64,000 bases of DNA from a virus: positions 1 through 64,000 of the IMG/VR virus record IMGVR_UViG_3300027896_000010, one strand, 5' to 3'. Each line of letters opens with the position of its first letter. The stretch's first letter is position 1. Of the stretch, positions 24,453-44,512 are shown piece after piece. Made by a program: the position numbers and the translations under genes. The notes under the pieces were generated by a model, which was not told the DNA's origin, made no database searches, and saw only the letters and a program-made list of their open reading frames with translations.

Positions 24453-24995
24453 TTATATCAGCCCTAATTCAACTAACCAAGATGGATATCCATGAGGACA
24501 GGCCGTGCAGTCTGGTTCCACGCGACACCCATCTGTGGCTTTGGCTACACCATCGTACATCCATTTCTCCATCGTCTTGATGCTGGGCTGTTTGGTCTTG
24601 GGAGTCTTCTTCTGCCGATGCTCTCTCAAAAATTCCCCTGCTTCCTCTGGAGAGATATCCGCAAGAACTTCCTTGACCACCTTACTGATTATCTTCGCAA
24701 GCCTATCTTCATCCATGGTGACTTCCCCCTCGTTATAGTCATACAACTTATCATCAACCCAGTATCTAGGGTCGCTATAGTCTAGCCCTGACTTCAACCC
24801 GCCCTCATATTGCTTGCTACATTCCAACAGAGCCTTCTTCAATTGATGAACCTGCTGTTCTAAATCCGTTATCTTATTGATATAAGCAGTGCATTGGTCT
24901 TTGTGATACATCTTCATCTCGTCCATCTTATGAAGAACTTCTCCAACAGAAGGGTCTTTGCTTAGTGGGGGCAGACCACCTGATTTCTCTTCCAT
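24453..24995 (-). CDS. two-part ORF with internal leader-A start at 24716 and C-terminal Cys/His motif
   Basis: GAGGGG-N-ATG MDEDRLAKIISKVVKEVLA; DGCRVEPDCTACPHG. Confidence 0.7.
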   Translation of the reverse strand: MEEKSGGLPPLSKDPSVGEVLHKMDEMKMYHKDQCTAYINKITDLEQQVHQLKKALLECSKQYEGGLKSGLDYSDPRYWVDDKLYDYNEGEVTMDEDRLAKIISKVVKEVLADISPEEAGEFLREHRQKKTPKTKQPSIKTMEKWMYDGVAKATDGCRVEPDCTACPHGYPSWLVELGLI

Positions 24996-25294
24996 TACTC
25001 TCTCCAGTCTATATTCTTTCTCTCTTCAGTCTTTCTGGTTTTTATGAGAAAGACTTCTAGGGCATCATAGACAGCAGTCAATCTTTCTTTTATCTCCATG
25101 GATTCAGCGATGCCAGCTTCCCCAGAAATCTTCTCCAGCTCATCCTCGGCTTCACCTATCAGATTAAGAGCTTTGTGGGTAGCCACATCATCTTCCTCGC
25201 TCCAGTCTGAAGGATAGGCTCCCTCTTCGGTATCCCAAGCCAAAACCTCTTTCACCACTTTTGATATCACTTCTTCAAGTCTTTGCTCATCCAT
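24995..25294 (-). CDS. leader-A acidic protein
   Basis: MDEQRLEEVISKVVKEVLA. Confidence 0.75.
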   Translation of the reverse strand: MDEQRLEEVISKVVKEVLAWDTEEGAYPSDWSEEDDVATHKALNLIGEAEDELEKISGEAGIAESMEIKERLTAVYDALEVFLIKTRKTEERKNIDWRE

Positions 25295-25295
25295 G

Positions 25296-25724
25296 TTATT
25301 CCTCCGGCTTCACAGGTCGCCGTCTCTCTTGCATCCTCTTGCTCTGCTCTTCGAGGAACCATTCGTAATTATCCTTTGAGGCTCTCGCCCTGAATCGGAG
25401 ATTGTTAACAGCATCCTCAACCTTTGGCTTGAAGTCCTTGACGGTACGAGATACATCCTGAAGGTTGCCTATGACAGAATACCTGTAACTCATATACTCC
25501 CACTGTACCGTATTGGAATTGTTATGAAGATTCTCTTCAATGGTATCAGCTAGCTCAGCGACACTTTCTAGCTGAGTCACAAGAGCCTCTAGCTCATCGG
25601 TTACATCAGCAACCCTGCCTATCATGCCACCCATATCATCTCTAGCATCATACTTGAGTGCCATCTTCTTACCACCCAGTACTTCTGCGACTGCTTCTCG
25701 GACTATCCTTTCAATATCATCCAT
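25296..25724 (-). CDS. leader-A coiled-coil protein
   Basis: MDDIERIVREAVAEVLG..KKMAL. Confidence 0.72.
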   Translation of the reverse strand: MDDIERIVREAVAEVLGGKKMALKYDARDDMGGMIGRVADVTDELEALVTQLESVAELADTIEENLHNNSNTVQWEYMSYRYSVIGNLQDVSRTVKDFKPKVEDAVNNLRFRARASKDNYEWFLEEQSKRMQERRRPVKPEE

Positions 25725-25734
25725 GGCTCTCCCC

Positions 25735-26010
25735 TTAGTGCTTGTGGTGATGACGTCTCATGTGTTGCCTATCGGCTCTCGCTTTCGCCCTGCGCGAAGC
25801 CCTGTTAGGCTCTGTGTTATTAACTTTCTCCTTGGGGAACTTCACCCATACGGAGCGCCCCTTATGAACTATAATTTTGCCCAGAGGATTATCGTTATCT
25901 GGCGGTGGAACCATTAACAAATTGGCATCGTATCCAAATTCTTTTCCTGATTCTGCATCTTGCATTGTGTTCTCCCTAGTGTGAAATAAAGGCAACGTGC
26001 CTAGCACCAT
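25735..26010 (-). CDS. hypothetical protein
   Basis: true start probably MQDAESG, after the upstream stop. Confidence 0.5.
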   Translation of the reverse strand: MVLGTLPLFHTRENTMQDAESGKEFGYDANLLMVPPPDNDNPLGKIIVHKGRSVWVKFPKEKVNNTEPNRASRRAKARADRQHMRRHHHKH

Positions 26011-27301
26011 ATCTCGTCAGGCGCTCGTTTCTGGGTAACCAGCAGAACAGACAAAGCTCTACACCCTTTGGCCCCATCCCTTCTCCGCATCCTCCTGTCT
26101 CTTTATACGGACACATGAAAACTTCACTCGGCTTTATCCGGTCTCTCTTACCCAGCCCCTGATTCAATACATTGAGAGTCTGTTGAAGAGTGGCTCCTCC
26201 TTTGGGAATTATCAATGCCAATCCATCTACGTTAGGATTCTTGAGGAAAGACCTTATCTTTTCATTCGTACTGCCTTCATAATAAGTAGATTCTTCTTTC
26301 CAATTGACCTTGTCTTTCTTAGGCTCCATTTTTGGTAAACCAGTCGCCTTGTCATACACTATCTCATTTTGGTGATTGGGATTTTTGTTTCTCACAGGTT
26401 GCATTATCACTTCGCCAGTTTCTGGGTCTATGGATTCTGCTTCGTCATAGAAATTAGTAGGCAATTCATAATTAGGGTCAATGCTTCCGTTGAATACCAT
26501 GTTCTCTGGTTTATCCCTCATGTTCTCCAACAGCTTGTATACCTTGGTGAAAGCCATGAACCTGACCTGTGGGCATCCCCTTGCTACATCCATCCATTTA
26601 TAGAAATAGTCCTTATCATAGAAGTCTCCAGACTCATGTATCCTAATGATATCGACGCCATCTTTGTAAGCTTGCCTTATGCCAGTAATCATCAGGCTTG
26701 TGAAATTGGAGTCAAGAGATGTATAGTATCTATCCATCCTGTAAGGAAGAGATTGGTTATACATCCCCTCTGGCTTTCTGGCATAACAAAATTCATGACA
26801 AAACTCAGTTGATTCTGGACAAGTCTTCCAGCATGGAAGACACCACACCCCTATCCTCGCGTCTAACTTACGGTTACCATATTTCAATAAATCTTTTGAG
26901 GCCACAAGTACTCTCCCGCAAGGGCTTAGCATCTTATCCCCTGTGAACTTATCACTTCCCTTGGCAGGGTCATATTTATCCCTCTTCTGGGTGCGAGGCT
27001 TCTTCCCCCTATCAGTAGTTTGCTGTAAGTAAAGCCCCCTTTGCTCGTCTTTCTTTACTTTGAATTTCGATTCTAAGGTCATCCCAAGGCTAGACATATC
27101 GATATCATCTATGACCATAAACCCATTTTGCTTCGCTACTCCTATGAAGTCACCAACTGAGTGGATAGCTCTATGGACTATGTTCTTAAGCTTATCCCAT
27201 AGTCCAGCCTCTCTTATAATTTCATCAGCAATATGGGAAGCTATGACTTCAATGTTATCGCTTATAACCTTAGCTATAACATCATCTATCCAGTCATCCA
27301 A
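25976..27301 (-). CDS. Gp88-like (radical-SAM-like Cys cluster) protein with leader-A
   Basis: CLPCWKTCPESTEFCHEFCYA, IRIHESGDFY..Y..KW, FMAFTK; leader MDDWIDDVIAKVISDNI. Confidence 0.75.
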   Translation of the reverse strand: MDDWIDDVIAKVISDNIEVIASHIADEIIREAGLWDKLKNIVHRAIHSVGDFIGVAKQNGFMVIDDIDMSSLGMTLESKFKVKKDEQRGLYLQQTTDRGKKPRTQKRDKYDPAKGSDKFTGDKMLSPCGRVLVASKDLLKYGNRKLDARIGVWCLPCWKTCPESTEFCHEFCYARKPEGMYNQSLPYRMDRYYTSLDSNFTSLMITGIRQAYKDGVDIIRIHESGDFYDKDYFYKWMDVARGCPQVRFMAFTKVYKLLENMRDKPENMVFNGSIDPNYELPTNFYDEAESIDPETGEVIMQPVRNKNPNHQNEIVYDKATGLPKMEPKKDKVNWKEESTYYEGSTNEKIRSFLKNPNVDGLALIIPKGGATLQQTLNVLNQGLGKRDRIKPSEVFMCPYKETGGCGEGMGPKGVELCLFCWLPRNERLTRYGARHVAFISH

Positions 27302-27312
27302 TTGACTATCTC

Positions 27313-28536
27313 CTATTTCTTCTCTTCCTTCTTTTCCTTTACGGTCTCCTTCGCTTTCTCGGCAGAAGGAGTGGCACTCTTGCCCATCTTGTCTACTACC
27401 TCGTCATGCACCCAGTCGAGAATATCGTCTGCATACTCACGCACGACATCATAGACCAGAGCCTCGTCGCCCTTCTCTTCCTTCGCCCATCGTGCGACAT
27501 CGGTCATGAAGGATTGAATGTCTCCAAACACATATCCACTGTCTTGGTCAACTGGCATAGAATCCCCTACATCCAGCGTCTCTGGGAGCGTAGCTGGCTC
27601 CTCAGGGGCTTCTGGAGCCATCGGAGCCTCTGCCCCTATGTCCATGTCACCCTCGTCGCCCTTACCGGCAGGTGGGACGGGAGGGCCTTCAGGCTCAGCC
27701 GCTTCCTTCTCAATCTCCTGCTTAACCAACCTCGCTATTAACTTTACAAGCTCTTCGTCTTTCATGCTGTTCTCCTTTATGTAAGCTGATTTTTCTATAG
27801 GCCAGTAATTTCCACCTGATTCTTTCATATCTTTTTCTGGAACAGTTTGCATAAATCTTTTTACTACGACTGGATTATTGTCAGCACACGTTAACATATC
27901 TTCATCTTTAAACATTATGCAAACTCCATTACTGGAATTGCCTTTACTAGAAGTTAAGTAAGCCATCATTGTAGGTACGTAAGGAACAAGTTCGTCACCT
28001 TCTGGATGATAACCCCCAAAATCCAAATTTTTCTTTTTGTAAGTTGTTAGAATTCTCTTTATCTTTACTGAAGTAGGAGCGTACCAAACCCACGCACCTC
28101 TTCCAGTAATATGGTCATACTCTACTCCTGTATAAACCCAAGGTGTGCTGGGGTCAGTTAACATCTCTTGCTCTGCCAATTCCAACTTATTCAACCATGC
28201 TTGCCTTATGTCGCTATGTTCGTATTGCTTATCTCTATCAATAGGCCCAAACCTCTCTTCGTCCATCCTATCCATGTACGCATCTTCAGATTCATCTTCA
28301 CGCATACCATCTGCCAGCACCTCCTTGACCACCTTTGCTACTACCTGTGCAATCCTCTCTTCATCCATGATTCTCTCCTTTATCTTGCTAGCTTTATCAT
28401 GCGAGAACTCACTCCCGCAGTCCTGACAGCGGAACCATTCCTTAGCTCCAAGAGTACCCAGCGGGACTCCTATGCCTGAGCAATACGGGCAACTGGGATT
28501 CTCCAGCGGTTCATCTAACTCATCATAATCTTCCAT
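27313..28536 (-). CDS. composite ORF: zinc ribbon plus two internal leader-A units (starts 28368 and 27765)
   Basis: CPYC..CQDC; MDEERIAQVVAKVVKEVLA; MKDEELVKLIARLVKQEI; each preceded by AAGGAG. Confidence 0.7.
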   Translation of the reverse strand: MEDYDELDEPLENPSCPYCSGIGVPLGTLGAKEWFRCQDCGSEFSHDKASKIKERIMDEERIAQVVAKVVKEVLADGMREDESEDAYMDRMDEERFGPIDRDKQYEHSDIRQAWLNKLELAEQEMLTDPSTPWVYTGVEYDHITGRGAWVWYAPTSVKIKRILTTYKKKNLDFGGYHPEGDELVPYVPTMMAYLTSSKGNSSNGVCIMFKDEDMLTCADNNPVVVKRFMQTVPEKDMKESGGNYWPIEKSAYIKENSMKDEELVKLIARLVKQEIEKEAAEPEGPPVPPAGKGDEGDMDIGAEAPMAPEAPEEPATLPETLDVGDSMPVDQDSGYVFGDIQSFMTDVARWAKEEKGDEALVYDVVREYADDILDWVHDEVVDKMGKSATPSAEKAKETVKEKKEEKK

Positions 28537-28537
28537 T

Positions 28538-29422
28538 CTATTTCCCCCTCTTCAGCCAACTGAACCAGCCCTTCTTTACCTTGCCCTTACGGCAATAGTT
28601 GCTCGTCCTCAGTTTGAATTGCTTATAGATTGCACAGTTCTTGCATATGCAATGCGAAGGTGTCGGTGTCGGCGTAGGTGTTGGAGTCGGTGTAGGTGTA
28701 GGTGTGGGTGTCGGAGTTGGCGTAGGTGTAGGTGTAGGAGTAGGAGTAGGAACTGGAATCGGCACTGGCTGCACAGCAGCCCATGCTTCTCCCGGCGATT
28801 CGATACCATTTAACAGCTTCTGGAAATCAGAGATGAGGATTTTGAACTTGCCCTGCAAGCCCCAAGTCGTTCCCCATGAATTAACAGCGTCCAGATACAT
28901 ACTATCCTCACCGTTCTGGAACCAGCAGTGACCCCCCTGAACCGAACCAGTCGGCTTGATAACGCCATTCACTGGGTCAAACATATCGCTAGTCCACTCG
29001 GTTCCCACGAGAACAGATCCATGTTTTTGAAGCCAGTCCACGATTTCTGTCATGGTATTCAGCTTGGCGTAGCCACTTATCCAGCCCTTGTCTTTTGCTA
29101 CCTTCAATCCGTCTCTCACATAAGCCCCATCTTCGGCTCCCGGCTCTCCCTCCAGTATTTTGATATCAAGATAAAAGCCATGGCACTGTTCCCCGGAGAG
29201 ATGCGGGTCGATGTGATTCTCATCATCACAATTCAGCATACCTCCAGTGCCATATGCCACACACTCATTCGTGCTTCCTTGGTCAAGGATTTCGGTATCC
29301 GACCAGATAACTGGGACGGCTATCCCCTCGTCTATCATCGATTCTAATTGCTTGACGGTATAGTCCCTTGGGTCATCGACAAGGGGCTTTCTGCCTAGAC
29401 CGAACTGCTTATCCCCACTCAT
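28538..29422 (-). CDS. papain-like (C1) cysteine peptidase with Pro-Thr linker
   Basis: DQGSTNEC, GGHC, NSWG.TWG. Confidence 0.85.
   Translation of the reverse strand: MSGDKQFGLGRKPLVDDPRDYTVKQLESMIDEGIAVPVIWSDTEILDQGSTNECVAYGTGGMLNCDDENHIDPHLSGEQCHGFYLDIKILEGEPGAEDGAYVRDGLKVAKDKGWISGYAKLNTMTEIVDWLQKHGSVLVGTEWTSDMFDPVNGVIKPTGSVQGGHCWFQNGEDSMYLDAVNSWGTTWGLQGKFKILISDFQKLLNGIESPGEAWAAVQPVPIPVPTPTPTPTPTPTPTPTPTPTPTPTPTPTPTPSHCICKNCAIYKQFKLRTSNYCRKGKVKKGWFSWLKRGK
28665..28772. repeat. (Pro-Thr)n coding tandem repeat
   Basis: degenerate 6-nt repeat GG(T/A/C)GT(A/C/T/G) encoding roughly 18 PT units. Confidence 0.9.
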
Positions 29423-29973: not shown

Positions 29974-30089
29974 GCCCACTCACATATCCAATCCATGGGC
30001 AAGAACCTCTTGAATGAACATTCCCAAGAGGCGTCACAATCCTCACAGCCCATATCTAATATGCAAAGAAAGCTACAAAATTCATTCAT
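29970..30089 (-). CDS. 39-aa Cys-rich peptide (below ORF-track cutoff)
   Basis: MNEFCSFLCILDMGCEDCDASWECSFKRFLPMDWICEWA; overlaps both neighbours. Confidence 0.4.
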   Translation of the reverse strand: MNEFCSFLCILDMGCEDCDASWECSFKRFLPMDWICEWA

Positions 30090-31152
30090 TAGTATCATCT
30101 CTAGAGTTATCGTGGTCACCGCCTACTTTTGTTATCTCATGGAAAAGTATTGCCTTATCAATCATTTCTTTGGTAGTAGAGCCAGCCTTATCTTTCGGCC
30201 TTAACATTTCAAGAACAGAATTAATCTCTGCCAGTTTACTCAGCATGGCGCTTGCCACCATCTCTTGGATATCCCTTTGCTCTTCATCGAAGTAATCCAT
30301 AGTATCTCCAGCCGCCTCGTGATAACGGTCTGTTATTTCCCCAGCTACCTGACCGATAAGCCAATTGATATCAGACTTTCTGAGTTGCGTATATAACTCA
30401 GTTAGCAGGGGAGCTATCTCTCTTTTAATCGCCTTCCTGAATGCCTCATAAGCCTTAGGGTCACGATAGAACCTCTCCAGAGGACTTTCGAATTTACCCT
30501 GAGGCAGGGCGTCTATAAACTTTCGTGCCTGTAGTTCACAGGAGTCCAACACATCGAAGATATAGGCTCTGCCTACGCTGACGTTGGCTTCGTTCCTGCC
30601 AAGGCTATAGGGGCCGTTAGAAGGCTCCAGATGCAATCTATTCCTATATTCTTGTAGTTCTTCAGTAAGAGCCGACAGAACCTCTAGCGTGGCTTCCCTG
30701 ATTATCCTGACTAGTTCTGGCCCCTTTATAGAAGCCTCTATCGCTGTCGGGTCATATTCCCAGAATGGGCAATCCATACCAGACCCCTCTCCCACTGGCT
30801 CGTCTGCTGGAGTCCTCGTTAGGTCTTCTGGCTCCGCATAGGTCAAATCCATGAAGTCCTTATCAGCCTCAAGCTCTGTACCAATTTCATCCCACGCTTG
30901 GTCATATTTAAGCTCATCTTGGTCGGTCTGCCCGGGATTGGCGACGATATCATTTACTTGAGGCCCGAACTTCTTGACCAGCTTTTTCTTCTTGCCATCC
31001 GACCATATAGCAAAAATGGCTTCCGCTTTCTCCCTGCGTTTCGGATTAGTGCAAAGCTCTTCCTCCTGATACGGGTCATACATAGAACTTGGGTTCATCC
31101 ACTCAGCCACTTCGTGCCATCTACAATTCATACATCCTATATCTTCATCCAT
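30082..31152 (-). CDS. two-domain hypothetical protein with an internal leader-A-like helix
   Basis: CxxC..C..C N-terminal domain; ELVRIIREATLEVLSA junction. Confidence 0.6.
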   Translation of the reverse strand: MDEDIGCMNCRWHEVAEWMNPSSMYDPYQEEELCTNPKRREKAEAIFAIWSDGKKKKLVKKFGPQVNDIVANPGQTDQDELKYDQAWDEIGTELEADKDFMDLTYAEPEDLTRTPADEPVGEGSGMDCPFWEYDPTAIEASIKGPELVRIIREATLEVLSALTEELQEYRNRLHLEPSNGPYSLGRNEANVSVGRAYIFDVLDSCELQARKFIDALPQGKFESPLERFYRDPKAYEAFRKAIKREIAPLLTELYTQLRKSDINWLIGQVAGEITDRYHEAAGDTMDYFDEEQRDIQEMVASAMLSKLAEINSVLEMLRPKDKAGSTTKEMIDKAILFHEITKVGGDHDNSRDDTNE

Positions 31153-32366: not shown

Positions 32367-32579
32367 TCAAGGCGGTGGGGCTGGCGGTGTCCAAGTATCT
32401 GGGTCTACCGTGTCCATGACAGTAAAATCTGCTGGGATGCTCTCATCAGATTCCATGAACGACTCTAGGAACTTCCCCAACTGAACCCATTTCTCTTCAT
32501 CTGGCTTAAAAGCCATATACTTCCCGCCTATGGCTTCAAGACCGCTCCACAGGACATACGCTAATTTCGGGTATGACAT
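32367..32579 (-). CDS. stand-alone copy of the shared ~62-aa C-terminal module
   Basis: YPKLAYVLWSG..GKYM.F.PDE.KWV.LG..LESFMESD. Confidence 0.75.
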   Translation of the reverse strand: MSYPKLAYVLWSGLEAIGGKYMAFKPDEEKWVQLGKFLESFMESDESIPADFTVMDTVDPDTWTPPAPPP

Positions 32580-32607
32580 AACATCCTCCTATATCTTATT
32601 CGGGGGG

Positions 32608-34500
32608 TTATTCCCCATTGTCTGGGTCTACAATATCATTCACTGTAAAATTGCTGGGGAGGTTCCCATCCGAATCCATAAACGACTCCAGCAATTCTCC
32701 AAGAACTACCCACTTGGTTTCATCTGGATTGAAAACCATGTATTTACCACTTACCACCCCAGTGCCAGACCACGTTACATTCGCTACTTTGGGGTATGCA
32801 ACCCCACCTTCAGAAGAATACCAACTAACTTCTAACGTGTGGTTTGCAACAACGTTGTGCATAGTGTAAATAGTTACACCGTAATAATTATAAACTCCGT
32901 CAACCAAAATTCTGGTAGAATGGCCTTCATCTGGACTGCAAGTTACAGTCAAATCACTATTATAATTTACACTGACATGCCCCAAAGGACTTACGGTGCC
33001 ATGTAAAATACCACTTTCAAAAATATAAACATCAAACAATTGGGCAATATTTGCCCTAGCGGCCAACAAATAATTGAAAGTACTTTGAATATTTGACTGA
33101 GAATCCAAAATGGCGACTTCAGTATTTTTAACGTTTGCCTTAGTTGCCAATAAATAATTGAAAGTACTTTGAATATTTGACTGAGAATCCAAAATGGCGA
33201 CTTCAGTGTTTTTAACGTTTGCCCTAACTGCCAAGCTTTTTTCTTGCAAATTTGTTATTCTAGCACTAGAGTTAATGGTTTGTGTTTGAGTTTTACTTAA
33301 ATTGACTTTTGAAATTTCAGTGTACGTCATGGTCTCAGTAACTGTAAATCCATTGGAAAGAGTACCATTCCCAGTATCTGTATTTGTTACATTAATATCC
33401 CATGTACCTACAATAGCTCCTGTTATAGGGGCAATACAATCTATCTTCGTTGGAGAGTCCACATTTACTGAAGTACAATCAATGTCAAATTGCCCTATCT
33501 TCTTCAAAGCTACAGTCGCTCCTGAGGCAAATCCTGTTCCTTCAAGGTCAGTGATAGAGACTGAAGTGTTATTAAACCCTGAAGACGGGGCACAAGAGAT
33601 AACAGTAGGACTAATTATTGCTGTCCCTGCCCAAACGTCTCCACCCCAAATTGCATCATCAGCATTACCAATGGCAGGAAGTCTTCGAACTAAAGTCGCC
33701 CCATCACCTTGAAAGACTTTGAAGTATCCAGTAATACCAGTTCCACCGAAGTCCACAAGTGTACAATCCATAATAGCGGTTCCATCACTTGCCGCTGCGC
33801 TAGTAGCAAGAAGGGTATCAGAAGAATTGTAGAGTTTTACTATATAACCATCTTCAACTGTTTTTCCCGCTGAACCAATGGTTATGTTCAGTGAAGAAAA
33901 AATACTCATGTAGGCAACTGTAATGGTATTGTAATCATATACTGAACGTAAGTCACCTACAAGTACAAAAGGTAAATATGTATACGTAACCACATTTGAA
34001 TATGTGTCTATCGCGGCTATAGTTGATGGGTTACGACCAACCATCTTCTTATTACCAGCACCATCGCTTGTTATTTCATAAAGCCAATAATTATCATCCT
34101 CATAATTCGCCGGAGCATTAGCCGCACTAACTGACCAATAGAAACGACCTCCGTGGCCAGCACCATTGCTTATTTGACAACGACAAGGAGGGGATGACCA
34201 TGCTAGATTAGCGGCTGGCACAGAATCTATATCATTTACACCCGCTACACAAACAACGCTCTCCCCTACTGAAGTAACCTTTGTTTTTATTCTTACAACC
34301 CACGGTAAGGCATCATTCAACGCAACTGTTTTAACGATGTAAGCATAGTCTGTGTATGCCGCTGTCGTACAGGTACAGAGGTTCCCAGATACCGCTACTG
34401 TCCCGTTTCCTCCAACTACAGCATTAAGCCAAGCTGGAAGTGAAGAGCCGGGAAAGTTGGTAGCATTTATCAGACCATTAGTGATTTTATTAAAGCTCAT
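32608..34500 (-). CDS. virion decoration/adhesion protein (lectin-like, IPT/TIG-like, InlB-B-repeat-like, shared C-terminal module)
   Basis: PTVISCAPSSG..GTGFASGATV Ig pattern; GTVSPLGHVSV; 28-aa tandem repeat. Confidence 0.7.
   Translation of the reverse strand: MSFNKITNGLINATNFPGSSLPAWLNAVVGGNGTVAVSGNLCTCTTAAYTDYAYIVKTVALNDALPWVVRIKTKVTSVGESVVCVAGVNDIDSVPAANLAWSSPPCRCQISNGAGHGGRFYWSVSAANAPANYEDDNYWLYEITSDGAGNKKMVGRNPSTIAAIDTYSNVVTYTYLPFVLVGDLRSVYDYNTITVAYMSIFSSLNITIGSAGKTVEDGYIVKLYNSSDTLLATSAAASDGTAIMDCTLVDFGGTGITGYFKVFQGDGATLVRRLPAIGNADDAIWGGDVWAGTAIISPTVISCAPSSGFNNTSVSITDLEGTGFASGATVALKKIGQFDIDCTSVNVDSPTKIDCIAPITGAIVGTWDINVTNTDTGNGTLSNGFTVTETMTYTEISKVNLSKTQTQTINSSARITNLQEKSLAVRANVKNTEVAILDSQSNIQSTFNYLLATKANVKNTEVAILDSQSNIQSTFNYLLAARANIAQLFDVYIFESGILHGTVSPLGHVSVNYNSDLTVTCSPDEGHSTRILVDGVYNYYGVTIYTMHNVVANHTLEVSWYSSEGGVAYPKVANVTWSGTGVVSGKYMVFNPDETKWVVLGELLESFMDSDGNLPSNFTVNDIVDPDNGE
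33062..33233. repeat. 84-nt in-frame tandem duplication
   Basis: NVKNTEVAILDSQSNIQSTFNYLLA present twice, near-identical DNA. Confidence 0.9.
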
Positions 34501-34536
34501 AACTGAATCACCATTTGTTACTTACCCTTCTTTTTG

Positions 34537-36579
34537 CTATGCATCTAGACTTCTGGTACTGTTAATTGTAATGTTTTCTGGCAGACTTCCTGTTGAGTCC
34601 ATAAAAGACTCCAGAAGCTCTCCAAGAACTACCCACTTAGTTTCATCTGGATTAAAATCCATGTACTTGCCGCTTATCACGCCATCCCCATTCCACGTTA
34701 CATTTGCCAGCTTAGGGGTTGCTGTTGAAAAAGATGAATTTTCTATGTTACTCTTTGCCCTAAGTGTTCTAGTCGTGTGTATTGTTGGAATCAGAATGTT
34801 GCTCTTTACCGTAAGTGTTCTAGTCGTGTGTATTGTTGGAATCAGAATGTTACTTTTCGCTATAAGCGTTTGGACTATAGTTGTCTGTCGTTCTACCCAG
34901 CTTACCCCCAAGGTGTGATTGCCACGTACATCAGTAAACAGATAAGAGCCGACAGTTCCAATATCTTCTCCGTCGATAAATATGTGGAACGTCCAATCTT
35001 CACTCTCTGAGTTGATAGTAAACAGAACACCCTCACCAAAATCAACTAACACTACTCCACTTGGGTCTAAAGTACCGTGTGAAGGCGAACCCTGTGTTGC
35101 TGTTATCGTAAATGTAGGTGCATCAACATTGAAGTTAGGGAAGTTGCTTTCACCTTGGTCTGTCATGACTTCCATAGGAATAGTGCCATAATTGGCATCC
35201 ATGCCCACAGTACAGACTATCTCTTTATCACTCCAAGAAACTATGTCGGCAGCAATACTTCCTATTATGACCCTGCCATATTCTCCCTGTGCCGCCCCAA
35301 AACTGTACCCATCAATGGTAACCGTCCCGCCCCTTGACGCGTGGTCTGGAGACAGGCTAGTTATATATGGTGTCCTGTCTACAGTGAAAGCATAATGATT
35401 GCTCTCCCCTGCTTCAGTGGTAATCACTTCCGCAAAGCCAACACCAAATGGTACGCCCTCTACCACCTTACAGACTATCTCTGTGCCACTCCAAGAAACT
35501 ACGTCTGCAACTTCATAGCAAATAACCGCTATATCTTCTTCCCCTTGAGTGTCCCCAAAGCCAGAACCACTAATGGTTACTGGCGCACCTATCGGAGCAT
35601 GGTCAGGAACTATGTCAGCTATGTGCGTAGGCACCCACGCCTTAGCGGTTAAACTATGAGCAGTGAGACGAAAATCCGTAACGTCTGTCTTACCAGTTAA
35701 AGTCCTTGTAGTTGTCTTCTTGACATCAGCCTCACTGGTTTCTGTCTTGATATGCCTCTGCAATATAAGTGCTTTCGAAGTCTCGGTATGCTTGACCAGC
35801 CAATGAACCTTCGCCTTGGAAGTTACAGTTTCTGTTGTGTGCGTCACAAGCTCAAAAGGAATCGTATTTGACCACATTGGTGTGTATGCATTGGTAACAT
35901 ATATTCCGCTTGCTAATGTGTGTAGGCTTGGCGGTACTGGGCAGGTTATCGAAGTGTCTGACCATGATGTGTAATAAGATTCTACGTTGTCAGGAACAAA
36001 TGTGACAAAACTCGACTCATGCTCATCGCCAAAACCTTCCCCTGTCAACACCACGCTGTCCATAAGAGCAGCTTCATTTGGAACCACCGAAAGCACAATA
36101 GGATTGCCAAAGCTGTACTGGAGCCACTCAGGGCCACCATCCCAATCTGCCATCCACGAAAGAGCGTCATCGGCATGGAAGGCAGTATACGGAAGCCAAC
36201 CACCACTGGTATGACTCGCGCTGACAACGTTCGGTGCTGGAGAGCTATTGGCTTCCATGTTGTAGCAAATATCGGTGCCGTTGAGCGTAAGACCCATCTT
36301 GTATATCAGAACGGAAGTGTCTACACCTTGGATAGCGGTGACGGTTATCCGAAAGTCCCTGTACAGCACAGGGGTCTGGTACAAAACATAACTTTGCTTC
36401 TGGGCCACAGTTGTTGTATTAAAGCTCTGGTTCGTCACAGAATGTAAAAGCGTGGACGTACTGAACCCATCGTTGCTCCCAGATAGCGTCCACGACTTTA
36501 TGGCCTTGGACAGACCGCCCCCATCATGGGCTGGTATTATCCAGTACCCATTGATTTTGTGTGCGCCCGGAGTCGCCAT
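34537..36579 (-). CDS. virion decoration/adhesion protein (discoidin F5/8-like, three IPT/TIG, InlB-like, shared C-terminal module)
   Basis: IKSWTLSGSNDG, EWLQYSF, (L/I)TG(E/S)GFG..SWS(D/G)TEI repeats. Confidence 0.75.
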   Translation of the reverse strand: MATPGAHKINGYWIIPAHDGGGLSKAIKSWTLSGSNDGFSTSTLLHSVTNQSFNTTTVAQKQSYVLYQTPVLYRDFRITVTAIQGVDTSVLIYKMGLTLNGTDICYNMEANSSPAPNVVSASHTSGGWLPYTAFHADDALSWMADWDGGPEWLQYSFGNPIVLSVVPNEAALMDSVVLTGEGFGDEHESSFVTFVPDNVESYYTSWSDTSITCPVPPSLHTLASGIYVTNAYTPMWSNTIPFELVTHTTETVTSKAKVHWLVKHTETSKALILQRHIKTETSEADVKKTTTRTLTGKTDVTDFRLTAHSLTAKAWVPTHIADIVPDHAPIGAPVTISGSGFGDTQGEEDIAVICYEVADVVSWSGTEIVCKVVEGVPFGVGFAEVITTEAGESNHYAFTVDRTPYITSLSPDHASRGGTVTIDGYSFGAAQGEYGRVIIGSIAADIVSWSDKEIVCTVGMDANYGTIPMEVMTDQGESNFPNFNVDAPTFTITATQGSPSHGTLDPSGVVLVDFGEGVLFTINSESEDWTFHIFIDGEDIGTVGSYLFTDVRGNHTLGVSWVERQTTIVQTLIAKSNILIPTIHTTRTLTVKSNILIPTIHTTRTLRAKSNIENSSFSTATPKLANVTWNGDGVISGKYMDFNPDETKWVVLGELLESFMDSTGSLPENITINSTRSLDA
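34745..34860. repeat. 51-nt in-frame tandem duplication
   Basis: KSNILIPTIHTTRTL present twice. Confidence 0.9.
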
Positions 36580-37108: not shown

Positions 37109-37360
37109 TTAGTCCATTAAACTTTTAATAATTTGCAATGCTCGTGCTGTATCCTTTCCCAATCCAGTGATTACATCACCAAGCCACTTTTTGGCACCTT
37201 CCAAATCGCCATGGTTTATATCTTCGAGCGCCCAAGGCAATTTAGTTTCGGCGTAATAACGCATCCCACCAATAATCTCTAGAAGCTGAGACATGTCCGA
37301 CCATCCCAACACTTCATGAACTGCTTCCTTTACTATCTCTCCAATGCGCTCTTCATTCAT
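37109..37360 (-). CDS. leader-A protein
   Basis: MNEERIGEIVKEAVHEVLG. Confidence 0.72.
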   Translation of the reverse strand: MNEERIGEIVKEAVHEVLGWSDMSQLLEIIGGMRYYAETKLPWALEDINHGDLEGAKKWLGDVITGLGKDTARALQIIKSLMD

Positions 37361-38141
37361 TCTCTTCTTCCTCCAAGTCGCTCAAGATATCATCAAGCTG
37401 GTCAATGCAATCCGCTAACTGGTCTATGGCTTCATCTATTGATGAGACAGGATTAAGCTTAAGGTCTATAAGCTGTTGCCCTATCTCAGCGATATCTGTC
37501 TGCCACTGTTCGGCATCATCTTCTATGCCATCTTCTTGCAGTTCGTCAAATGGCTCTTCCTCTTCACCCAGTACTTCTCTCAGTACCTTTGATATCACAG
37601 CTTCAAGCTTATCTTCATCCATAGCTATCTCCTTTATACTTGCCGCTGGTCGTAATGACCAAGGCCCTTTGGCGCTCCACTCTTCTGGCTCATTCTGATT
37701 ATACTCAGCAGTACCTATCTCCTGACCGCACTCTGGGCAGTGGAGAATCCAGCATGCAGGTTCGAAATCGCAATCATCATTGCTCTCGTATTCCTTATCC
37801 GCTTTCGATTCACTACCTTTCCATCCACAGAAATCACAGGTCAATAACCTTGTAGGCTCTCCCCATCTTGCTTCCTTGTGGTACTTCATATATTGCTCAC
37901 CGAACTCTGTAAAGCCATCCTCGGTAGTCCAGTAGACTTTGTCTATGTCCTCATCTGCGAACCACGCTTGTACCCTCGCTGGGACTCCGTATTGTTCGCT
38001 CAGCTTCTGAGCTTTCTTGATGGCATTAGGGACATTCGTCGCGCCCTGCCCACTTGACCTCCAGCCACTTGGTGTGCCAGATATCTTTTTCCCGAATTGG
38101 AGATATACTTGATAGGCTCCATAGCCACCATGTTTAGTCAT
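37353..38141 (-). CDS. composite ORF: N-terminal domain, zinc ribbon, internal leader-A unit (start 37622)
   Basis: CDFCGW..CPECG; AAGGAG-N7-MDEDKLEAVISKVLREVLG. Confidence 0.7.
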   Translation of the reverse strand: MTKHGGYGAYQVYLQFGKKISGTPSGWRSSGQGATNVPNAIKKAQKLSEQYGVPARVQAWFADEDIDKVYWTTEDGFTEFGEQYMKYHKEARWGEPTRLLTCDFCGWKGSESKADKEYESNDDCDFEPACWILHCPECGQEIGTAEYNQNEPEEWSAKGPWSLRPAASIKEIAMDEDKLEAVISKVLREVLGEEEEPFDELQEDGIEDDAEQWQTDIAEIGQQLIDLKLNPVSSIDEAIDQLADCIDQLDDILSDLEEEENE

Positions 38142-38322: not shown

Positions 38323-38325
38323 TTG

Positions 38326-39177: not shown

Positions 39178-39195
39178 ACTTCGTCCACCACCCCT

Positions 39196-39417: not shown

Positions 39418-39429
39418 CTGTGTCTCCCC

Positions 39430-39723
39430 TTACTCAGCACTGCCCTGCCACTTAGGATTCATTTGATATTCTCTGATAATATCTCTGGCGTCTGCCAGAT
39501 GGGCATAGATTCTCTGAACATCACCAATAGGGAGATAGGCATCCTGTTCACTACCAGTGTACATATGGTCTTTGATACCATACATTATTCTCGCCGCATG
39601 ATGTGTCGCTTCCCTCACCTCCAAATCCAGACTCTCTAGGTCTTGGTCGAAAGTCTTTCCTGTATCAGCCAGTACTTCTTTGACCACTCTGGTCACTACC
39701 TCTGTTACTCTGGCTTCGTCCAT
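39430..39723 (-). CDS. leader-A protein
   Basis: MDEARVTEVVTRVVKEVLA. Confidence 0.75.
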   Translation of the reverse strand: MDEARVTEVVTRVVKEVLADTGKTFDQDLESLDLEVREATHHAARIMYGIKDHMYTGSEQDAYLPIGDVQRIYAHLADARDIIREYQMNPKWQGSAE

Positions 39724-39733
39724 GCTGTCCCTC

Positions 39734-40375
39734 CTAGATATGTTCCTCCCAGTATTCGGTAAGCTTCTCCGCTAGCTCCTGTGCATCGTGAGGAATTCGC
39801 CTGACCGCCTTCATCATCAGCATAGGCTCACCAGACATCTCCATCCTAGCGTTCACATAATCCCTGATGCCTATCATGGCATCGCCTATCTCTTCGGTGA
39901 TGTGCAGGATTTCTTCTTTCAGTTCTGCCCTGTCGGAAGCCATCTTGCCCTCAAGCCCAAAGCCTACCCCTGCCTTCATCTCCCCGCACACAGGACACCA
40001 GTATTCATAGACGCCCCCGTACATCTTGGTTTTCTGGAGAGGCGCTCCGCAGTCGGCACACTTTGCGGCTAAGACTTCCTTGACCACCTTTGATATGATT
40101 TGCTCTAGCTCATCCATGATATCCTCCTTGTAGCTGGCGGCGACTAGTTCGACCTGCCCCCTGCCACGCAATACGTCAGCACAACTATTCAACAGTCTCG
40201 TCAACTCTTCGTAATCGACCCCATCATCACGAGTCTCGGCAAACAACTCCGCATTGGTAATTAGGTTTTCAATTACACGCAAGAAGCCCTCACTGTCCCA
40301 GAACAGTTCATCTACTCCACTTACGCTTTCCTTGACTACCTTTGCTATGATTTCATAAAGCCGTTGCTCACTCAT
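39734..40375 (-). CDS. tandem leader-A ORF (second unit starts 40117) with zinc ribbon
   Basis: MSEQRLYEIIAKVVKESV; AAGGAGG-N-MDELEQIISKVVKEVLA; CADC..CPVC. Confidence 0.72.
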   Translation of the reverse strand: MSEQRLYEIIAKVVKESVSGVDELFWDSEGFLRVIENLITNAELFAETRDDGVDYEELTRLLNSCADVLRGRGQVELVAASYKEDIMDELEQIISKVVKEVLAAKCADCGAPLQKTKMYGGVYEYWCPVCGEMKAGVGFGLEGKMASDRAELKEEILHITEEIGDAMIGIRDYVNARMEMSGEPMLMMKAVRRIPHDAQELAEKLTEYWEEHI

Positions 40376-40387
40376 GATGCTCTCCTC

Positions 40388-41065
40388 CTATGGGAGAACG
40401 ACTACATCTTCAAGATAAGTCCTGAGGTATTTCTGGAAGCCTTCGATGTCTGCGTCTATCTCCTCCATGAAATTCTCCACAACTCCCTCGACATCCCAAC
40501 TAAAAGCTGGCCCCTGATAATGATTGGTCCAGTATTGATGAGCCTCTTGTGCCAACCTCATAGCCATTTCTTCAAGATTGCGACTGTTCAATCTGCTTTC
40601 CAAGCTGACATAGCTATCCACAAATTCATCTTCATCGTTCTCGTAATCAACCGCTTCCTTCACCACAGCACCAGCCGCCTTCTCTTCTGTCCTCTGGGGC
40701 TTGGCCTTTACCGATGGCTTAAAATCCTTACATACGGTACAGCGCCATCCCGGTGGGTTCTTCCTACCCTCTCCACCTGCCCTGTTATGGAGCCTTTTGC
40801 CCTCGCCGTACTTCTCGTCCTGATAATCGTTCTTGCAAGTGCATGGCAGGACTTTGGTATTCTCTGCGGCTATAACTTCTGCAATTACCCTATCTACAAC
40901 TTCTTCAAGCTGTTTCTCGTCCACTAGCTCGTCCTCCAGCTTCCCTACAACATCTGTAATCTGTTCCCCACTAAGAGCATCTTCCTCTTGCCCTATCACT
41001 TGCTCTGTGGCTAGAACTTCCATGACTACTTTTGATATGATTTGCTCAAGCTTTTCTTCGTCCAT
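40388..41065 (-). CDS. double-leader-A protein with small Cys/His zinc domain
   Basis: MDEEKLEQIISKVVMEVLA; DEKQLEEVVDRVIAEVIAA; CTC..H..CTVC. Confidence 0.72.
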   Translation of the reverse strand: MDEEKLEQIISKVVMEVLATEQVIGQEEDALSGEQITDVVGKLEDELVDEKQLEEVVDRVIAEVIAAENTKVLPCTCKNDYQDEKYGEGKRLHNRAGGEGRKNPPGWRCTVCKDFKPSVKAKPQRTEEKAAGAVVKEAVDYENDEDEFVDSYVSLESRLNSRNLEEMAMRLAQEAHQYWTNHYQGPAFSWDVEGVVENFMEEIDADIEGFQKYLRTYLEDVVVLP

Positions 41066-41077
41066 GATACCCCCCCC

Positions 41078-41386
41078 CTAGTCTTCGAGCGTTTCTGTAT
41101 TTATTGAGAGATAAACAAGCCTTGCTTCCGTAAACAGTTCTTCCATCTTCTGGAACTTCTGTGTGAGGTCTGCATACTTGAGATTCGTTTCGTCTGGCTC
41201 CATCCCATATATCTGGCTTATAGCCGCCCTCACAGAGTCTATGCCATTGGCAGCATACTCAGCCGCATTGTCAGCCAATCTCTGCACTTCCTCTGCCGAA
41301 GTACCTTCCCAGTCTATTTCCTTAACTGCTTCCTTGGCTTGCCTCATTGCTCTCGACACTATAGCTTCTAGTTTTTTATCATCCAC
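41078..41386 (-). CDS. leader-A protein (divergent)
   Basis: GTG start, MDDKKLEAIVSRAMRQA. Confidence 0.65.
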   Translation of the reverse strand: MDDKKLEAIVSRAMRQAKEAVKEIDWEGTSAEEVQRLADNAAEYAANGIDSVRAAISQIYGMEPDETNLKYADLTQKFQKMEELFTEARLVYLSINTETLED

Positions 41387-41494
41387 GATATTCCCCTTAA
41401 CTTAAATCGCTTTACCATCCTCAGAACCGCCACCTGCTTCATCTATAGCGAGATACCCACTTGTCCATGTCAAATCTGTATTGCCCCTCCTAAA

Positions 41495-41797
41495 TTATAT
41501 CCCTCGTTGTTTTTGATATGGATTGTCCCAATGCTCTTTTTCCCAATTTCTTTTATGTCTTATCGGTGTACCATCGTACTCTGTTAGTCTAGAAATCTTA
41601 GGCCAACGTACCCTTAATTCTTTTTGGGGGTCACTTGGGTCTTCAATAATTATGGCTTCATCGTTAACTTCCAAAACATTAAAATTATCTCTCATGCCTT
41701 TTTCAAGTATGTCAAAAATTTGTTGGTAAGAATTCCCTGCCCCAATTACTTCTCTCACAGCTTCCCTGACTATTCTCTCTATCTGTCGTTCGTCCAT
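41495..41797 (-). CDS. leader-A protein
   Basis: AGGAGG SD, MDERQIERIVREAVREVIG. Confidence 0.72.
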   Translation of the reverse strand: MDERQIERIVREAVREVIGAGNSYQQIFDILEKGMRDNFNVLEVNDEAIIIEDPSDPQKELRVRWPKISRLTEYDGTPIRHKRNWEKEHWDNPYQKQRGI

Positions 41798-41805
41798 GGC
41801 TCCTC

Positions 41806-42183
41806 CTAGTTGATTGCTGGCGGCAGGTTCCCACTCGACCATGACTGGTCTGTATTTCCAGTGGTATAAACCTTATAATCTCCAGTCCCTGAGATGGTAG
41901 ATGATGTCCACGTATACTTATAAGGTTCGTACTGCCATGTAATGAGAGGCTTGGGATACTCATAGTACGGATAGATGCGAACGGGTGGATAGTAGTACGG
42001 CACTTCCTTGATTATCTCCCTCTCGATGACTGGCGGTCTCTCCAGAAGCTCATCGACTTTCGCCTCTAGCTCTTCGACCCTTTCCTTCATGGGCTTGGGC
42101 TTGGGCTTGGCTGGTACACTGGCTTCCAGTTCCTTGATTCTCTTCTCTAGCTCTTCGATTTTCTGCGCCTGTGACTTTGCCAT
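41806..42183 (-). CDS. coiled-coil plus Pro/Tyr-rich hypothetical protein
   Basis: 125-aa ORF with AAGGAG SD. Confidence 0.6.
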   Translation of the reverse strand: MAKSQAQKIEELEKRIKELEASVPAKPKPKPMKERVEELEAKVDELLERPPVIEREIIKEVPYYYPPVRIYPYYEYPKPLITWQYEPYKYTWTSSTISGTGDYKVYTTGNTDQSWSSGNLPPAIN

Positions 42184-42224
42184 TGTTCTTCTCCTTTTCT
42201 CACATATAAATACCTGATTGGTAT

Positions 42225-42740
42225 TTATTCTTCCTCTTCTTCATATTCTTCAGGTTCAGGCTCATCTTCAAACAAAGTATATCTTTCTTCATGGTGGAAT
42301 CGGAATAGGACATCAGAGAACATATCTGGCAGCAGCCTGTCTATGTTATTTCTGCAATAGATATAATCTTTCGGGCTATCTGCATTCTCATTAAGAAACC
42401 CGAAAGTGTCTGACAATATCTTCTTAAAACCCTCTAGCACCATACCATAAGCCTCTTGAAACAAAGACTCCATCTCCATTGCTACCTTCCGACTACCCCT
42501 CGACCTTCTTATAGCTTCGTCTCGCTGGTCTTTCAGAGCATCCCTGTTCTCTGTGAAGAGGTCTGAGTAGTCACCCTTAGCGAAACTCTCCCACTTCTCA
42601 AACATGAAATCTTTCGGGAGTGGGTCTATTCCAGCTTTCGCACACACTTCTTCATACTCTGCATAGCGACCCTCTAGGTCTTGTGGATTCAGTATCTCGC
42701 TCACGACTCTAGCAATGATTTCATTTAGCTGGTCATCCAT
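42225..42740 (-). CDS. leader-A protein
   Basis: MDDQLNEIIARVVSEIL; internal RKVAM junction. Confidence 0.72.
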   Translation of the reverse strand: MDDQLNEIIARVVSEILNPQDLEGRYAEYEEVCAKAGIDPLPKDFMFEKWESFAKGDYSDLFTENRDALKDQRDEAIRRSRGSRKVAMEMESLFQEAYGMVLEGFKKILSDTFGFLNENADSPKDYIYCRNNIDRLLPDMFSDVLFRFHHEERYTLFEDEPEPEEYEEEEE

Positions 42741-42827
42741 ATCGGTTCCCCCCCGTTTTACCTAGCGTTTTACCTACTATAGCTAAAATGACGTTTTACT
42801 TAGTTTTATCTAACTTCACAATAAAAT

Positions 42828-42853
42828 AGGCTCCCTACCGTGGTAGAGAACCT
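42828..42853 (-). terminator. probable intrinsic terminator
   Basis: 11-bp hairpin AGGTTCTCTAC-cacg-GTAGGGAGCCT with G-U pairs, then ATTTTATT. Confidence 0.6.
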
Positions 42854-43000
42854 CATATGACTAGCCTATCCTGTCTATTGTTTTACTTAAACTGTTATTT
42901 TATAAATCTGATACCACTGCTCTTAGCATAAGCAGGTCGCTGAGTCATCCAACGTCTATGTCTACTTTATCGTTACCGTTATCGTCTGGTCTGCTATTCA

Positions 43001-43270
43001 TCAGGGAAACATCTCCAGCCATTGAGTCAGGTCGCCACATACGTCCAAGGCTTTATCCAGATACTCTTTGATATTCCCACTCTCACCAGATACCTTCCCA
43101 GATATCGTTCCCTTCGTCTGGAGGAAGTCGAATATCGGTTCGAGCTTTGCTGAGGCTCCCGACAGTTCCGTATATATCGTGTTAAGAGCGGTAAGCAGGT
43201 CGAACCTGTCTACCGCTAGGACTACCCTTATGGCATCTGCTGTGATGGCTTCGAGCCTGTCTTCATCCAT
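43001..43270 (-). CDS. leader-A protein
   Basis: MDEDRLEAITADAIRVVLA. Confidence 0.72.
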   Translation of the reverse strand: MDEDRLEAITADAIRVVLAVDRFDLLTALNTIYTELSGASAKLEPIFDFLQTKGTISGKVSGESGNIKEYLDKALDVCGDLTQWLEMFP

Positions 43271-43281
43271 GGCGTTCTCCT

Positions 43282-43545
43282 TCAGTCCAATAAATCGTTT
43301 GAAAGCCTTCTAAGGTCTGCCAGCCTGTTTGAAATCACACTTAGCCAGAAGGACATTCCTTCTTCGAGTACTTCTCTAGGAGAGAACTGAGGGACTCGCT
43401 CCTTATCCTTACAGGCTTCCATTATCGAGTGTGCCGCTTGGAAGATATCGTATGCCTTATCCGATATTTCTTCGAACTCTTCTCCGCTCTGGAAAACCTG
43501 ACGAACAGTCTCGGCTATAATTTCTTCGAGTCGCTCTTCGTCCAT
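43282..43545 (-). CDS. leader-A protein
   Basis: MDEERLEEIIAETVRQVF. Confidence 0.72.
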   Translation of the reverse strand: MDEERLEEIIAETVRQVFQSGEEFEEISDKAYDIFQAAHSIMEACKDKERVPQFSPREVLEEGMSFWLSVISNRLADLRRLSNDLLD

Positions 43546-43560
43546 GGTATTCTCCTTGTG

Positions 43561-43836
43561 TTAGACCTTATGCTCAGAGCATTTACAATTATCGTGGATA
43601 TCCCCGGGCATCAGACCCCCAGCATACTCTCCCCCTGCGGGTCGCCTCTCCCCATCCATCTCTTGACAAGCCTCACAGCATCCGGGCATACTCGTCCATT
43701 CATACTCTTCTTCGTCGTCGTCCTGACCGTAGACCTCGAAATGTTCCTTGATACCCATTAAGCTACTCCCAATCCCAGTTACAGCTATTAATAAGCCACC
43801 CAACTTCATCAGATACCAAGTTAGCAATCTGGTCAT
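43561..43836 (-). CDS. small membrane protein with C-terminal Cys/His motif
   Basis: hydrophobic N-terminus; CCEACQ..HDNCKC. Confidence 0.45.
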   Translation of the reverse strand: MTRLLTWYLMKLGGLLIAVTGIGSSLMGIKEHFEVYGQDDDEEEYEWTSMPGCCEACQEMDGERRPAGGEYAGGLMPGDIHDNCKCSEHKV

Positions 43837-44512
43837 CTATAATCTCTTCATCCCAATCATCAGGAACTTCAACTTTTACTGTGTCGGGCAAATCGATATC
43901 AACATCTTCTCCCAACTCTTCGTCATAAGTATCCCAGTTGATATCAGTTACAATAGCAACCCTTGCAGTTTTATAGATAGCCCCAACCACCCTAGCTATA
44001 ATATCATCAATCTTTTCATCCATACTGTAACTGGCTACCGCTCCAAGCCCCAAGCCCTCTAAAGTTTCATTGAGCTTCTCGGCTAGGTCAGGGTTAGAAT
44101 GGACGAGACGCTTATAGATATACTTCCACGAGCCACCACGAATCCGAACATCTTCCACCATATGCTCTAGCTCTGGCATGGCTTCCAGTACCTCATCTTC
44201 CCATGGCAAGTTCACAGCAATCTCAACTCGTTTAGCCTCAGTTATTTCAGCAACTACTCTAGTTATAATTTCATCAAGATTGTCCATGCCATTTCTCCTA
44301 GCATAGTATGGCATGTCATAAGGAACGACCATGGGTCGTTTACTGATAGGCTGGTCTTCGCCACGTTGGTAGTCCTGACCAGTAGGGGTGGAGATGTTTC
44401 CTCGGAAGGGGTCTAGAAATCCTGTGTAGATTTCGTAGTTGAGAGCTTCATCCTCAACTTCTTTTTCTTCTTCTTCTTTTTCTTTTCTTGGTCTAGATTT
44501 ATATCCCATCAC
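43763..44512 (-). CDS. composite ORF with two internal leader-A units (starts 44286 and 44023)
   Basis: MDNLDEIITRVVAEI; MDEKIDDIIARVVGAI. Confidence 0.7.
   Translation of the reverse strand: MMGYKSRPRKEKEEEEKEVEDEALNYEIYTGFLDPFRGNISTPTGQDYQRGEDQPISKRPMVVPYDMPYYARRNGMDNLDEIITRVVAEITEAKRVEIAVNLPWEDEVLEAMPELEHMVEDVRIRGGSWKYIYKRLVHSNPDLAEKLNETLEGLGLGAVASYSMDEKIDDIIARVVGAIYKTARVAIVTDINWDTYDEELGEDVDIDLPDTVKVEVPDDWDEEIIDDQIANLVSDEVGWLINSCNWDWE

Follow-up and report, generated by a model that had tools for sequence, protein, structure and literature searches.

How can an open reading frame (ORF) come to carry, well inside its coding sequence, what looks like the complete beginning of another gene? 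This question is raised by a stretch of viral DNA, hereafter the window, that comprises the first 64 kb (positions 1 to 64,000) of IMGVR_UViG_3300027896_000010, a 193,437-bp IMG/VR record of an uncultured phage that is approx. 95% complete. Almost all genes of this phage are located on the - strand, and an array of small genes in the window encodes proteins that share a leader, i.e., a peptide of approx. 19 residues with the consensus M-D-E-x-x-L-E-x-I-I-x-K-V-V-x-E-V-L-A/G. According to a hidden Markov model (HMM) of this leader there are approx. 26 copies, which are confined to the - strand and to positions 22325 to 44290; when the whole 193-kb genome was searched, no copy came to light beyond the window. 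The copies differ mainly at synonymous sites, which indicates that conservation acts on the peptide. According to the alignment and to a low-confidence structural model described below, the leader is a short amphipathic helix followed by a linker and attached to unrelated cargo; no match to any Pfam family was found for it.

An earlier note on this DNA pointed out that six ORFs contain internal copies of the leader, and offered two explanations: gene cassettes fused in frame after the loss of a stop codon, or long polyproteins cut at an Ala-Ser (A|S) dipeptide and accompanied by an independently initiated short form. Our analysis leans towards the first of these, namely that the six ORFs are in-frame gene fusions in which the internal starts have survived.

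Six reading frames with internal leaders

The internal leaders were found as the earlier note had described them. The six ORFs, all on the - strand, hold one or two internal leaders each, for a total of eight copies whose first codons are at 24716, 28368, 27765, 37622, 40117, 40924, 44287 and 44023. A start codon is kept in all of them, seven being ATG and one GTG (40924). The peptides reached HMM scores of 21 to 36 and are conserved like those at N-termini; the copies at 27765, 44287 and 44023 are diverged.

ORF A (24453..24995, 180 residues) consists of a leaderless N-terminal module (N-module) of 93 residues and, from the Met codon at 24716, of a leader with Cys-rich cargo that would form a short protein of 87 residues. 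ORF B (27313..28536, 407 residues) begins with a zinc-ribbon N-module of 56 residues, followed by the leader at 28368, a module of 201 residues, the diverged leader-like helix at 27765 and an acidic module of 150 residues. In ORF C (37353..38141, 262 residues) a leaderless, beta-rich N-module of 173 residues that includes a zinc ribbon precedes the leader at 37622 and an acidic helical cargo of 70 residues. ORF D (39734..40375, 213 residues) is a typical leader protein of 86 residues continued by a second leader (40117) and a zinc-ribbon cargo, with a predicted short form of 127 residues. Likewise, ORF E (40388..41065, 225 residues) has a leader and an acidic stub of 27 residues, and then the second leader, starting at the GTG codon, and a zinc-knuckle cargo. 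ORF F (43763..44512, 249 residues) contains an N-module of 75 residues and two diverged leader units (44287 and 44023), which are paralogous beyond the leader itself (alignment score of 62 versus 29.6 +/- 5.7 for shuffled sequences). The zinc-knuckle cargo of ORF E (40388-40924) has a 55%-identical paralogue of 38 residues elsewhere in the genome, at 132258-132365.

The upstream parts of the fused ORFs are real coding sequence. They contain no stop over 47 to 173 codons, whereas stops recur every few codons in both other frames, and CxxC...CxxC zinc ribbons are present in several of the modules, for which Pfam returned only sub-threshold zinc-ribbon matches. Each long ORF has a Shine-Dalgarno sequence (SD) at its own start, that of ORF B being of the G-rich type also found at 24716, and the fused proteins C and D occur as identical records on two contigs. 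A single-sequence AlphaFold model of ORF C, of low confidence (predicted local distance difference test, pLDDT, of 46), placed the leader in a separate helix (residues 176-191) between coils; the ESM Atlas held nothing usable for the N-module of this protein. A link between the zinc ribbon of ORF C and those that follow the SRKTA joints of the head polyproteins, described below, was considered; the likeness is at the level of the motif only and had no BLAST support.

A possible seventh case is the ORF at 30082..31152 (- strand), where a leader-like helix follows A-S-I-K-G near 30723 and has no start codon. The leader HMM gave this stretch no score of 5 or more; it is possibly a decayed fusion, and is taken here as a lead only.

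Ribosome-binding sites before the internal leaders

The earlier note also claimed that most internal leaders retain an SD that is read as protein, and this proved correct for seven of the eight copies. The hexamer AAGGAG is located at -12 before the leaders at 28368 (28375..28380), 27765 (27772..27777) and 37622 (37629..37634), in the three cases read as K-E and accompanied by an out-of-frame TAA at -14. The leader at 40117 is preceded by AAGGAGG (40123..40129; duplex of -11.4 kcal/mol), read as K-E-D, and the GTG at 40924 by GGAGG at -13 (40933..40937; -9.3 kcal/mol). Before 24716 the G-rich site GAGGGGGA (24724..24731; -10.9 kcal/mol) is read in frame as E-G-E and belongs to an SD type used by many true starts of this phage, and AGGAG is found before 44287 (44295-44299); all these sites are on the - strand. 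In the four K-E cases the residues are always encoded by AAG-GAG, the other codons for Lys and Glu being unused.

To express the strength of these sites, the duplex energy with a generic anti-SD was used, and the background was formed by the 1271 other internal in-frame ATG codons. For seven of the eight internal leaders this energy ranges from -7.3 to -11.4 kcal/mol, at positions -10 to -15, and the mean for the 18 N-terminal leader genes is -9.7 kcal/mol. Six of the copies are in the top ~1.2% of the background and the seventh (44287) in the top ~3%. Genome-wide, the six-nucleotide SD core precedes 9 of 1278 internal in-frame ATG codons, and four of these nine are internal leaders. The structure of the messenger RNA (mRNA), evaluated over 60 nucleotides, is similar for internal starts (mean of -7.6 kcal/mol) and stand-alone leader starts (-6.9 kcal/mol), and is weaker at the internal starts than at random ATG codons (-10.7 kcal/mol, P = 0.02), although this partly reflects the leader sequence that they have in common. 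The association of internal leader and SD is real and goes far beyond chance.

A strong SD at the right spacing in weakly structured mRNA is expected to recruit ribosomes. An in-frame start codon together with a ribosome-binding site at a working distance is present at seven of the eight internal leaders, and since these sites match true starts in the strength and spacing of the SD, in the start codon and in the weak structure around it, an independently initiated short form is plausible. On balance, we consider it somewhat more likely than not that most of the internal sites initiate translation, and two products, one long and one short, would probably come from each fused gene. Internal promoters were rejected, as promoter-like and terminator-like sites occurred at chance level. 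The sole convincing terminator-like site of the array is an 11-pair hairpin with a T-rich tail at 42828-42853 (- strand), in the 260-nucleotide gap before the leader gene 42740.

Gene junctions and a proposed origin of the fusions

The architecture of the array was examined in a table that covers the 40 junctions found from 22 to 44.5 kb. At unfused junctions, the upstream stop codon is usually 8-18 nucleotides before the next ATG, inside or beside the SD. Across the whole genome, 86 instances of TAAGGAG, TAGGAGG, TGAGGAG, TGAAGGAG and TAAAGGAG were counted on the coding strand, versus 10 on the other. The embedding of stops in or near the next SD suggests pervasive translational coupling. Regarding SDs formed by a run of G (GGGGGG), 46 are found on the coding strand versus 10 on the other.

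With the stop inside or next to the downstream SD, fusion is a one-step event. Approximately 8 of the 40 junctions are in frame, have no second stop and are one substitution away from fusing; four of these precede leaders (43545, 41065, 40375 and 39177), where the substitution would yield a junction of the fused type, e.g., x-E-E-S-I-M at 40375. Half of the eight fused junctions show an out-of-frame stop at exactly -14 (nominal P ~4e-4), which is the position of the stop in unfused junctions with an 11-nucleotide gap (43270, 27301 and 23712); these stops fit with a small indel close to where the upstream gene ends. As the alternative frames are closed every few codons, a frameshift that occurred recently and far upstream was rejected. 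The fused pairs combine a leaderless with a leader gene (ORFs A, B, C and F) or two leader genes (D, E and the second junctions of B and F), and in this they mirror the mix among adjacent unfused pairs; likewise, the predicted short forms, of 86 to 178 residues, have the size of stand-alone members.

We propose that the six ORFs arose when neighbouring small genes, packed tightly on the same strand of the array, became fused in frame. The substitution of an in-frame stop, or a small indel before an out-of-frame stop, would join two genes and turn the SD into codons (AAG-GAG, i.e., K-E). With SD, spacing and start codon surviving, ribosomes would still start inside the fused gene, and the original short leader-cargo protein would still be made beside the new long form. 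The short form being kept, the fusion would be nearly harmless and able to persist. Over time the internal start could decay, as the missing SD at 44023 and the GTG at 40924 may illustrate, to leave a multi-module protein with an internal leader helix. More speculatively, if the leader were an address tag that works internally, the upstream leaderless module could be carried along. Seen this way, the array is an unusually clear and mechanistically ordinary case of gene fusion, given that nested in-frame starts and stop loss are known already; it is conspicuous because of the repeated leader and the stop-in-SD design of its junctions.

Relatives of the fused proteins

An exhaustive profile search with the leader among 1.84 billion representative proteins gave 22 matches, which correspond to 16 proteins of this phage, two low-complexity repeats and four proteins from related phages that sit on short Logan or JGI contigs. 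Two of these four, P0008 and P0009, are 81% and 78% identical to the proteins encoded at 22166-22390 and 22985-23320, respectively, and P0017 is a leader protein without a counterpart in this phage. The fourth, P0021, is encoded on a 2696-bp contig and has 152 residues, and in its first 54 residues it is a homologue of the N-module, without leader, of ORF A; the identity between both proteins is 49% and continues across the junction into the leader. After the N-module, P0021 reads in frame E-K-E-S-N-M, the leader and an unrelated cargo. Over 27 residues, its junction and leader share 81% identity with the start of the gene 22407-22700 (window positions 22632-22712), and this match takes in the four untranslated codons upstream of the ATG that carry the SD. 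It suggests that leader-cargo units have been exchanged by recombination at or near the leader. The cargo of P0021 is unrelated to that of ORF A and also to that of 22407-22700.

In a search made with the N-module of ORF A only, among shorter proteins, P0023 was found. This protein of 98 residues, encoded on a 4426-bp contig, is 72% identical to the N-module over 86 residues; it ends 4-5 residues beyond the ORF A junction, and its last residues are not leader-like. The N-module of ORF A thus appears in three states, once by itself and twice as part of a fusion, each time with a different leader-cargo unit.

The earlier note had suggested comparing related genomes to see whether orthologues are split at the junctions. 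For ORF A the answer was mixed, since P0023 is split and P0021 is fused, with another cargo; for ORFs C and D the protein searches returned no homologues but themselves. In IMG/VR nothing related was found with ORF C, P0021, P0023, an alignment query or two degenerate leader patterns. The leader DNA pattern gave only chance matches in JGI metagenome contigs and in GTDB genomes (in the latter, aspartyl-tRNA synthetase, RecX-like tails and similar), and in the scans of these three collections, at the DNA and at the protein level, no other leader array came to light.

Weighing the explanations

The anatomy of the six ORFs, the statistics of their SDs, the architecture of the junctions, the split P0023 and the differently fused P0021 all speak for the cassette fusion that the earlier note had put forward. 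Several points weigh against it, or against the internal starts that we associate with it. Homologues were found for only one of the six ORFs (ORF A), so that the events could be fusion or fission, and of any age. P0023 could have been cut by the end of its contig; this is unlikely, as the coincidence of its end with the junction speaks otherwise. The long and short products are predictions from the sequence, and the retention of the SDs may be explained by recent fusions without any selection; in favour of the internal starts, K-E at -4/-3 is present also in the diverged fused relative P0021. The copy at 44023 has no SD (duplex of only -3.3 kcal/mol), which argues against selection for an internal start, and the fusion model leaves unexplained why A-S is enriched before half of the junctions.

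The same ORFs can be read in other ways. They could be true multi-domain proteins with no working internal start, in which the leader helix serves for docking or as a linker, comparable to some microcompartment encapsulation peptides placed between domains, the long product is the only one of importance, and the SD-like hexamers are recent relics or tolerated K-E, R-R or G-G codons. The conservation of the internal leaders, equal to that of the N-terminal ones, agrees with this idea, as do a relative with 49% identity that is fused at the junction of ORF A too, the helix kept at 44023 where the SD is missing, and the separate helix in the low-confidence model of ORF C. However, strong and well-spaced SDs are rare inside the other genes of this phage (5/1271), the four K-E pairs are AAG-GAG and not AAA or GAA, every copy has kept ATG or GTG, and it is well established that such sites in weakly structured mRNA are expected to fire; we consider it unlikely that the long products are all there is. 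Scarcely credible is that the long frames are artefacts, i.e., assembly errors or chance open frames in front of genes that really begin at the internal leaders. A precedent for such openings is offered by the leader genes 23320, 31605, 38844 and 41797, whose 5' extensions are open for only 5-25 codons; the gene calls for these four, and for an orthologue in a relative, begin at the leader Met, and the extensions are probably meaningless, for which reason these were treated as ordinary genes. Against an artefact stand the length of the extensions in the fused ORFs, the closure of the other frames, the zinc ribbons and the SDs of the long ORFs; furthermore, one extension has homologues in two other phages, and fused proteins are identical on two contigs.

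The second proposal of the earlier note, a programmed nested gene whose long product is cut at A|S and whose short form is also made independently, fared less well; it would resemble herpesvirus UL26/UL26.5 (PMC4498786), and we regard it as improbable. The A(A)S contexts quoted in the note are all present. A-S precedes the leader Met by 3-8 residues at 28368, 37622, 40117 and 44023, i.e., at four of the eight junctions, or at five of nine if the non-significant leader-like stretch at 30723, which the leader profile does not recognise, is added. With a proteome frequency of 0.0053 for this dipeptide, its presence within 10 residues upstream has a nominal P ~3e-5, which becomes ~0.01 after the choice among 400 dipeptides is corrected for. 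The Ser and Ala codons vary between the copies, and any constraint would therefore be at the peptide level. On the other hand, A-S is missing at 24716, 27765, 40924 and 44287 and in P0021, so that no single cut motif is shared by every junction, and its distance to the leader is variable. The PAAS before 41797 is an accident, being the end of the upstream gene (...P-P-A-I-N-stop) in another frame, which indicates that such matches arise by chance. The two head polyproteins (genome 180994-187259) contain seven SRKTA joints, and at six of them the residue before the joint is Ala, which creates an A-S; however, what the polyprotein joints, the N-terminus of the capsid protein and the MNQRKIA N-termini have in common is RK[T/I]A, and not A-S. 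It is possible that RK[T/I]A is a mark of module N-termini that are conserved or generated by a protease. The major head protein (genome 170661-171680) begins M-A-R-E-R-K-T-A-G, and the M-N-Q-R-K-I-A N-termini found in the window resemble this start. The phage does encode a possible head maturation protease (genome 176622-177608), a candidate identified by a PHROG match only, with no Pfam and no PDB sequence match. Programmed cleavage at A|S is thus very doubtful, and it is just as hard to sustain that the fusions are a working design, with a polyprotein, a nested short form and a head protease that cuts A|S before the internal leader, at a P1-P1' pair that also occurs in the A-SRKTA joints of the head polyproteins. 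If this were true, leaderless modules would be brought to the destination of the leader, which may be the capsid interior, and then set free; the phage would have a counterpart of UL26/UL26.5 used repeatedly for cargo, and a route to new cargo by leader capture.

Comparison with known systems

The in-frame fusions with internal starts proposed here have several relatives among known systems. Nested in-frame capsid-assembly genes exist in phage lambda (C/Nu3) and phage Mu (I/Z), and T7 makes the proteins of gene 4A/4B from one gene by means of an internal in-frame start. In UL26/UL26.5 of herpesviruses, the in-frame inner gene supplies the scaffold alone, and the protease cuts after Ala (YLQA-T and VQA-S) (PMC4498786). 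The fused ORFs are similar in that a long ORF has an in-frame inner gene, and the C-terminal part would be produced both alone and attached, as far as can be read from the DNA. They differ in being six loci of one array and not one protease/scaffold gene, and in having unrelated small domains, and no protease, as N-modules. Moreover, in herpesviruses a separate transcript exists for the inner gene; in the phage there is only an SD, and the promoter signal is at chance level. In cas8 and cas10, an internal Met yields a needed short protein, Cas11, that corresponds to the C-terminal part (10.1101/2024.10.02.616218, where McBride et al. 2020 is cited). The internal Met inside an ORF, with an SD in bacteria, is common to both cases; in contrast, the Cas11 cases are single conserved loci that were proven by mutation of the Met, and the sites of this phage look like by-products of fusions that are recent or labile, one of these fusions being split in a relative.

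Regarding the leader itself, the capsid targeting sequence of T4 (PMC3012670) is likewise a short conserved N-terminal peptide on unrelated, fast-evolving small proteins. However, the T4 tag is known at N-termini only, as opposed to the eight internal copies described here, the leader is approx. twice as long, and its array is far from the head genes. No match to the T4-type prohead protease (PF03420, Peptidase_S77) was found in the phage genome at E <= 1, nor was there a match to PF04586 (S78). The encapsulation peptides of bacterial microcompartments (PMC6971018) offer a second likeness, i.e., an acidic amphipathic helix of ~18 residues, a poorly conserved linker and unrelated cargo, and proteins can carry them at the N-terminus, at the C-terminus or between domains. 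However, the genome has no match to the shell genes (PF00936 and PF03319), the leader has no Pfam or profile link, and the search of 1.84 billion proteins returned no microcompartment enzymes, only this phage and its kin. The resemblance was judged from the N-termini of PduD, PduP, EutC and EutE. In view of the lack of shell genes, of S77/S78 and of Pfam matches, and of profile matches restricted to this lineage, the likeness to both tags is at most a functional analogy. Targeting to the virion by the leader, and a role of leader proteins as virion cargo, are likewise conjectural.

Other features of the phage and of the array

The large terminase, encoded in the window at 59509-61200, is only ~25% identical to those of cultured actinophage myoviruses, which makes this a phage without close cultured kin; with the large terminase as query, no close relative was found in IMG/VR. 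The portal, the major head protein, the tail sheath and the candidate head maturation protease are encoded outside the window. Within the leader array, two large immunoglobulin-like appendage proteins and an ORF of 70 residues (32367-36579) share a C-terminal module of ~55 residues and have no leader. Also in the middle of the array, the ORF at 28538-29422 contains a remnant of a papain-like peptidase (Peptidase_C1, sub-threshold), followed by Thr-Pro repeated approx. 20 times and by a tail rich in Cys (DUF2769, sub-threshold). Beyond the array, an ORF of 1083 residues at 44924-48175 resembles an anaerobic ribonucleotide reductase, with an apparent central intein insertion (C...HNC boundaries in the translation).

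Implications

The array shows several stages of fusion side by side: junctions with the stop inside the SD, junctions in which the SD is read as codons, one in which the SD is lost, and homologues that are split or differently fused. Translationally coupled phage genes could, from what is seen here, merge with their original product kept, because the inner start survives. This has a consequence for annotation, since gene callers give only the long forms at these loci and the probable short proteins would go unnoticed. It also bears on how the leader might work. Were it an address tag active within a chain, the leaderless N-modules would be expected to travel along; were a free N-terminus required, this would be expected of the short forms alone.

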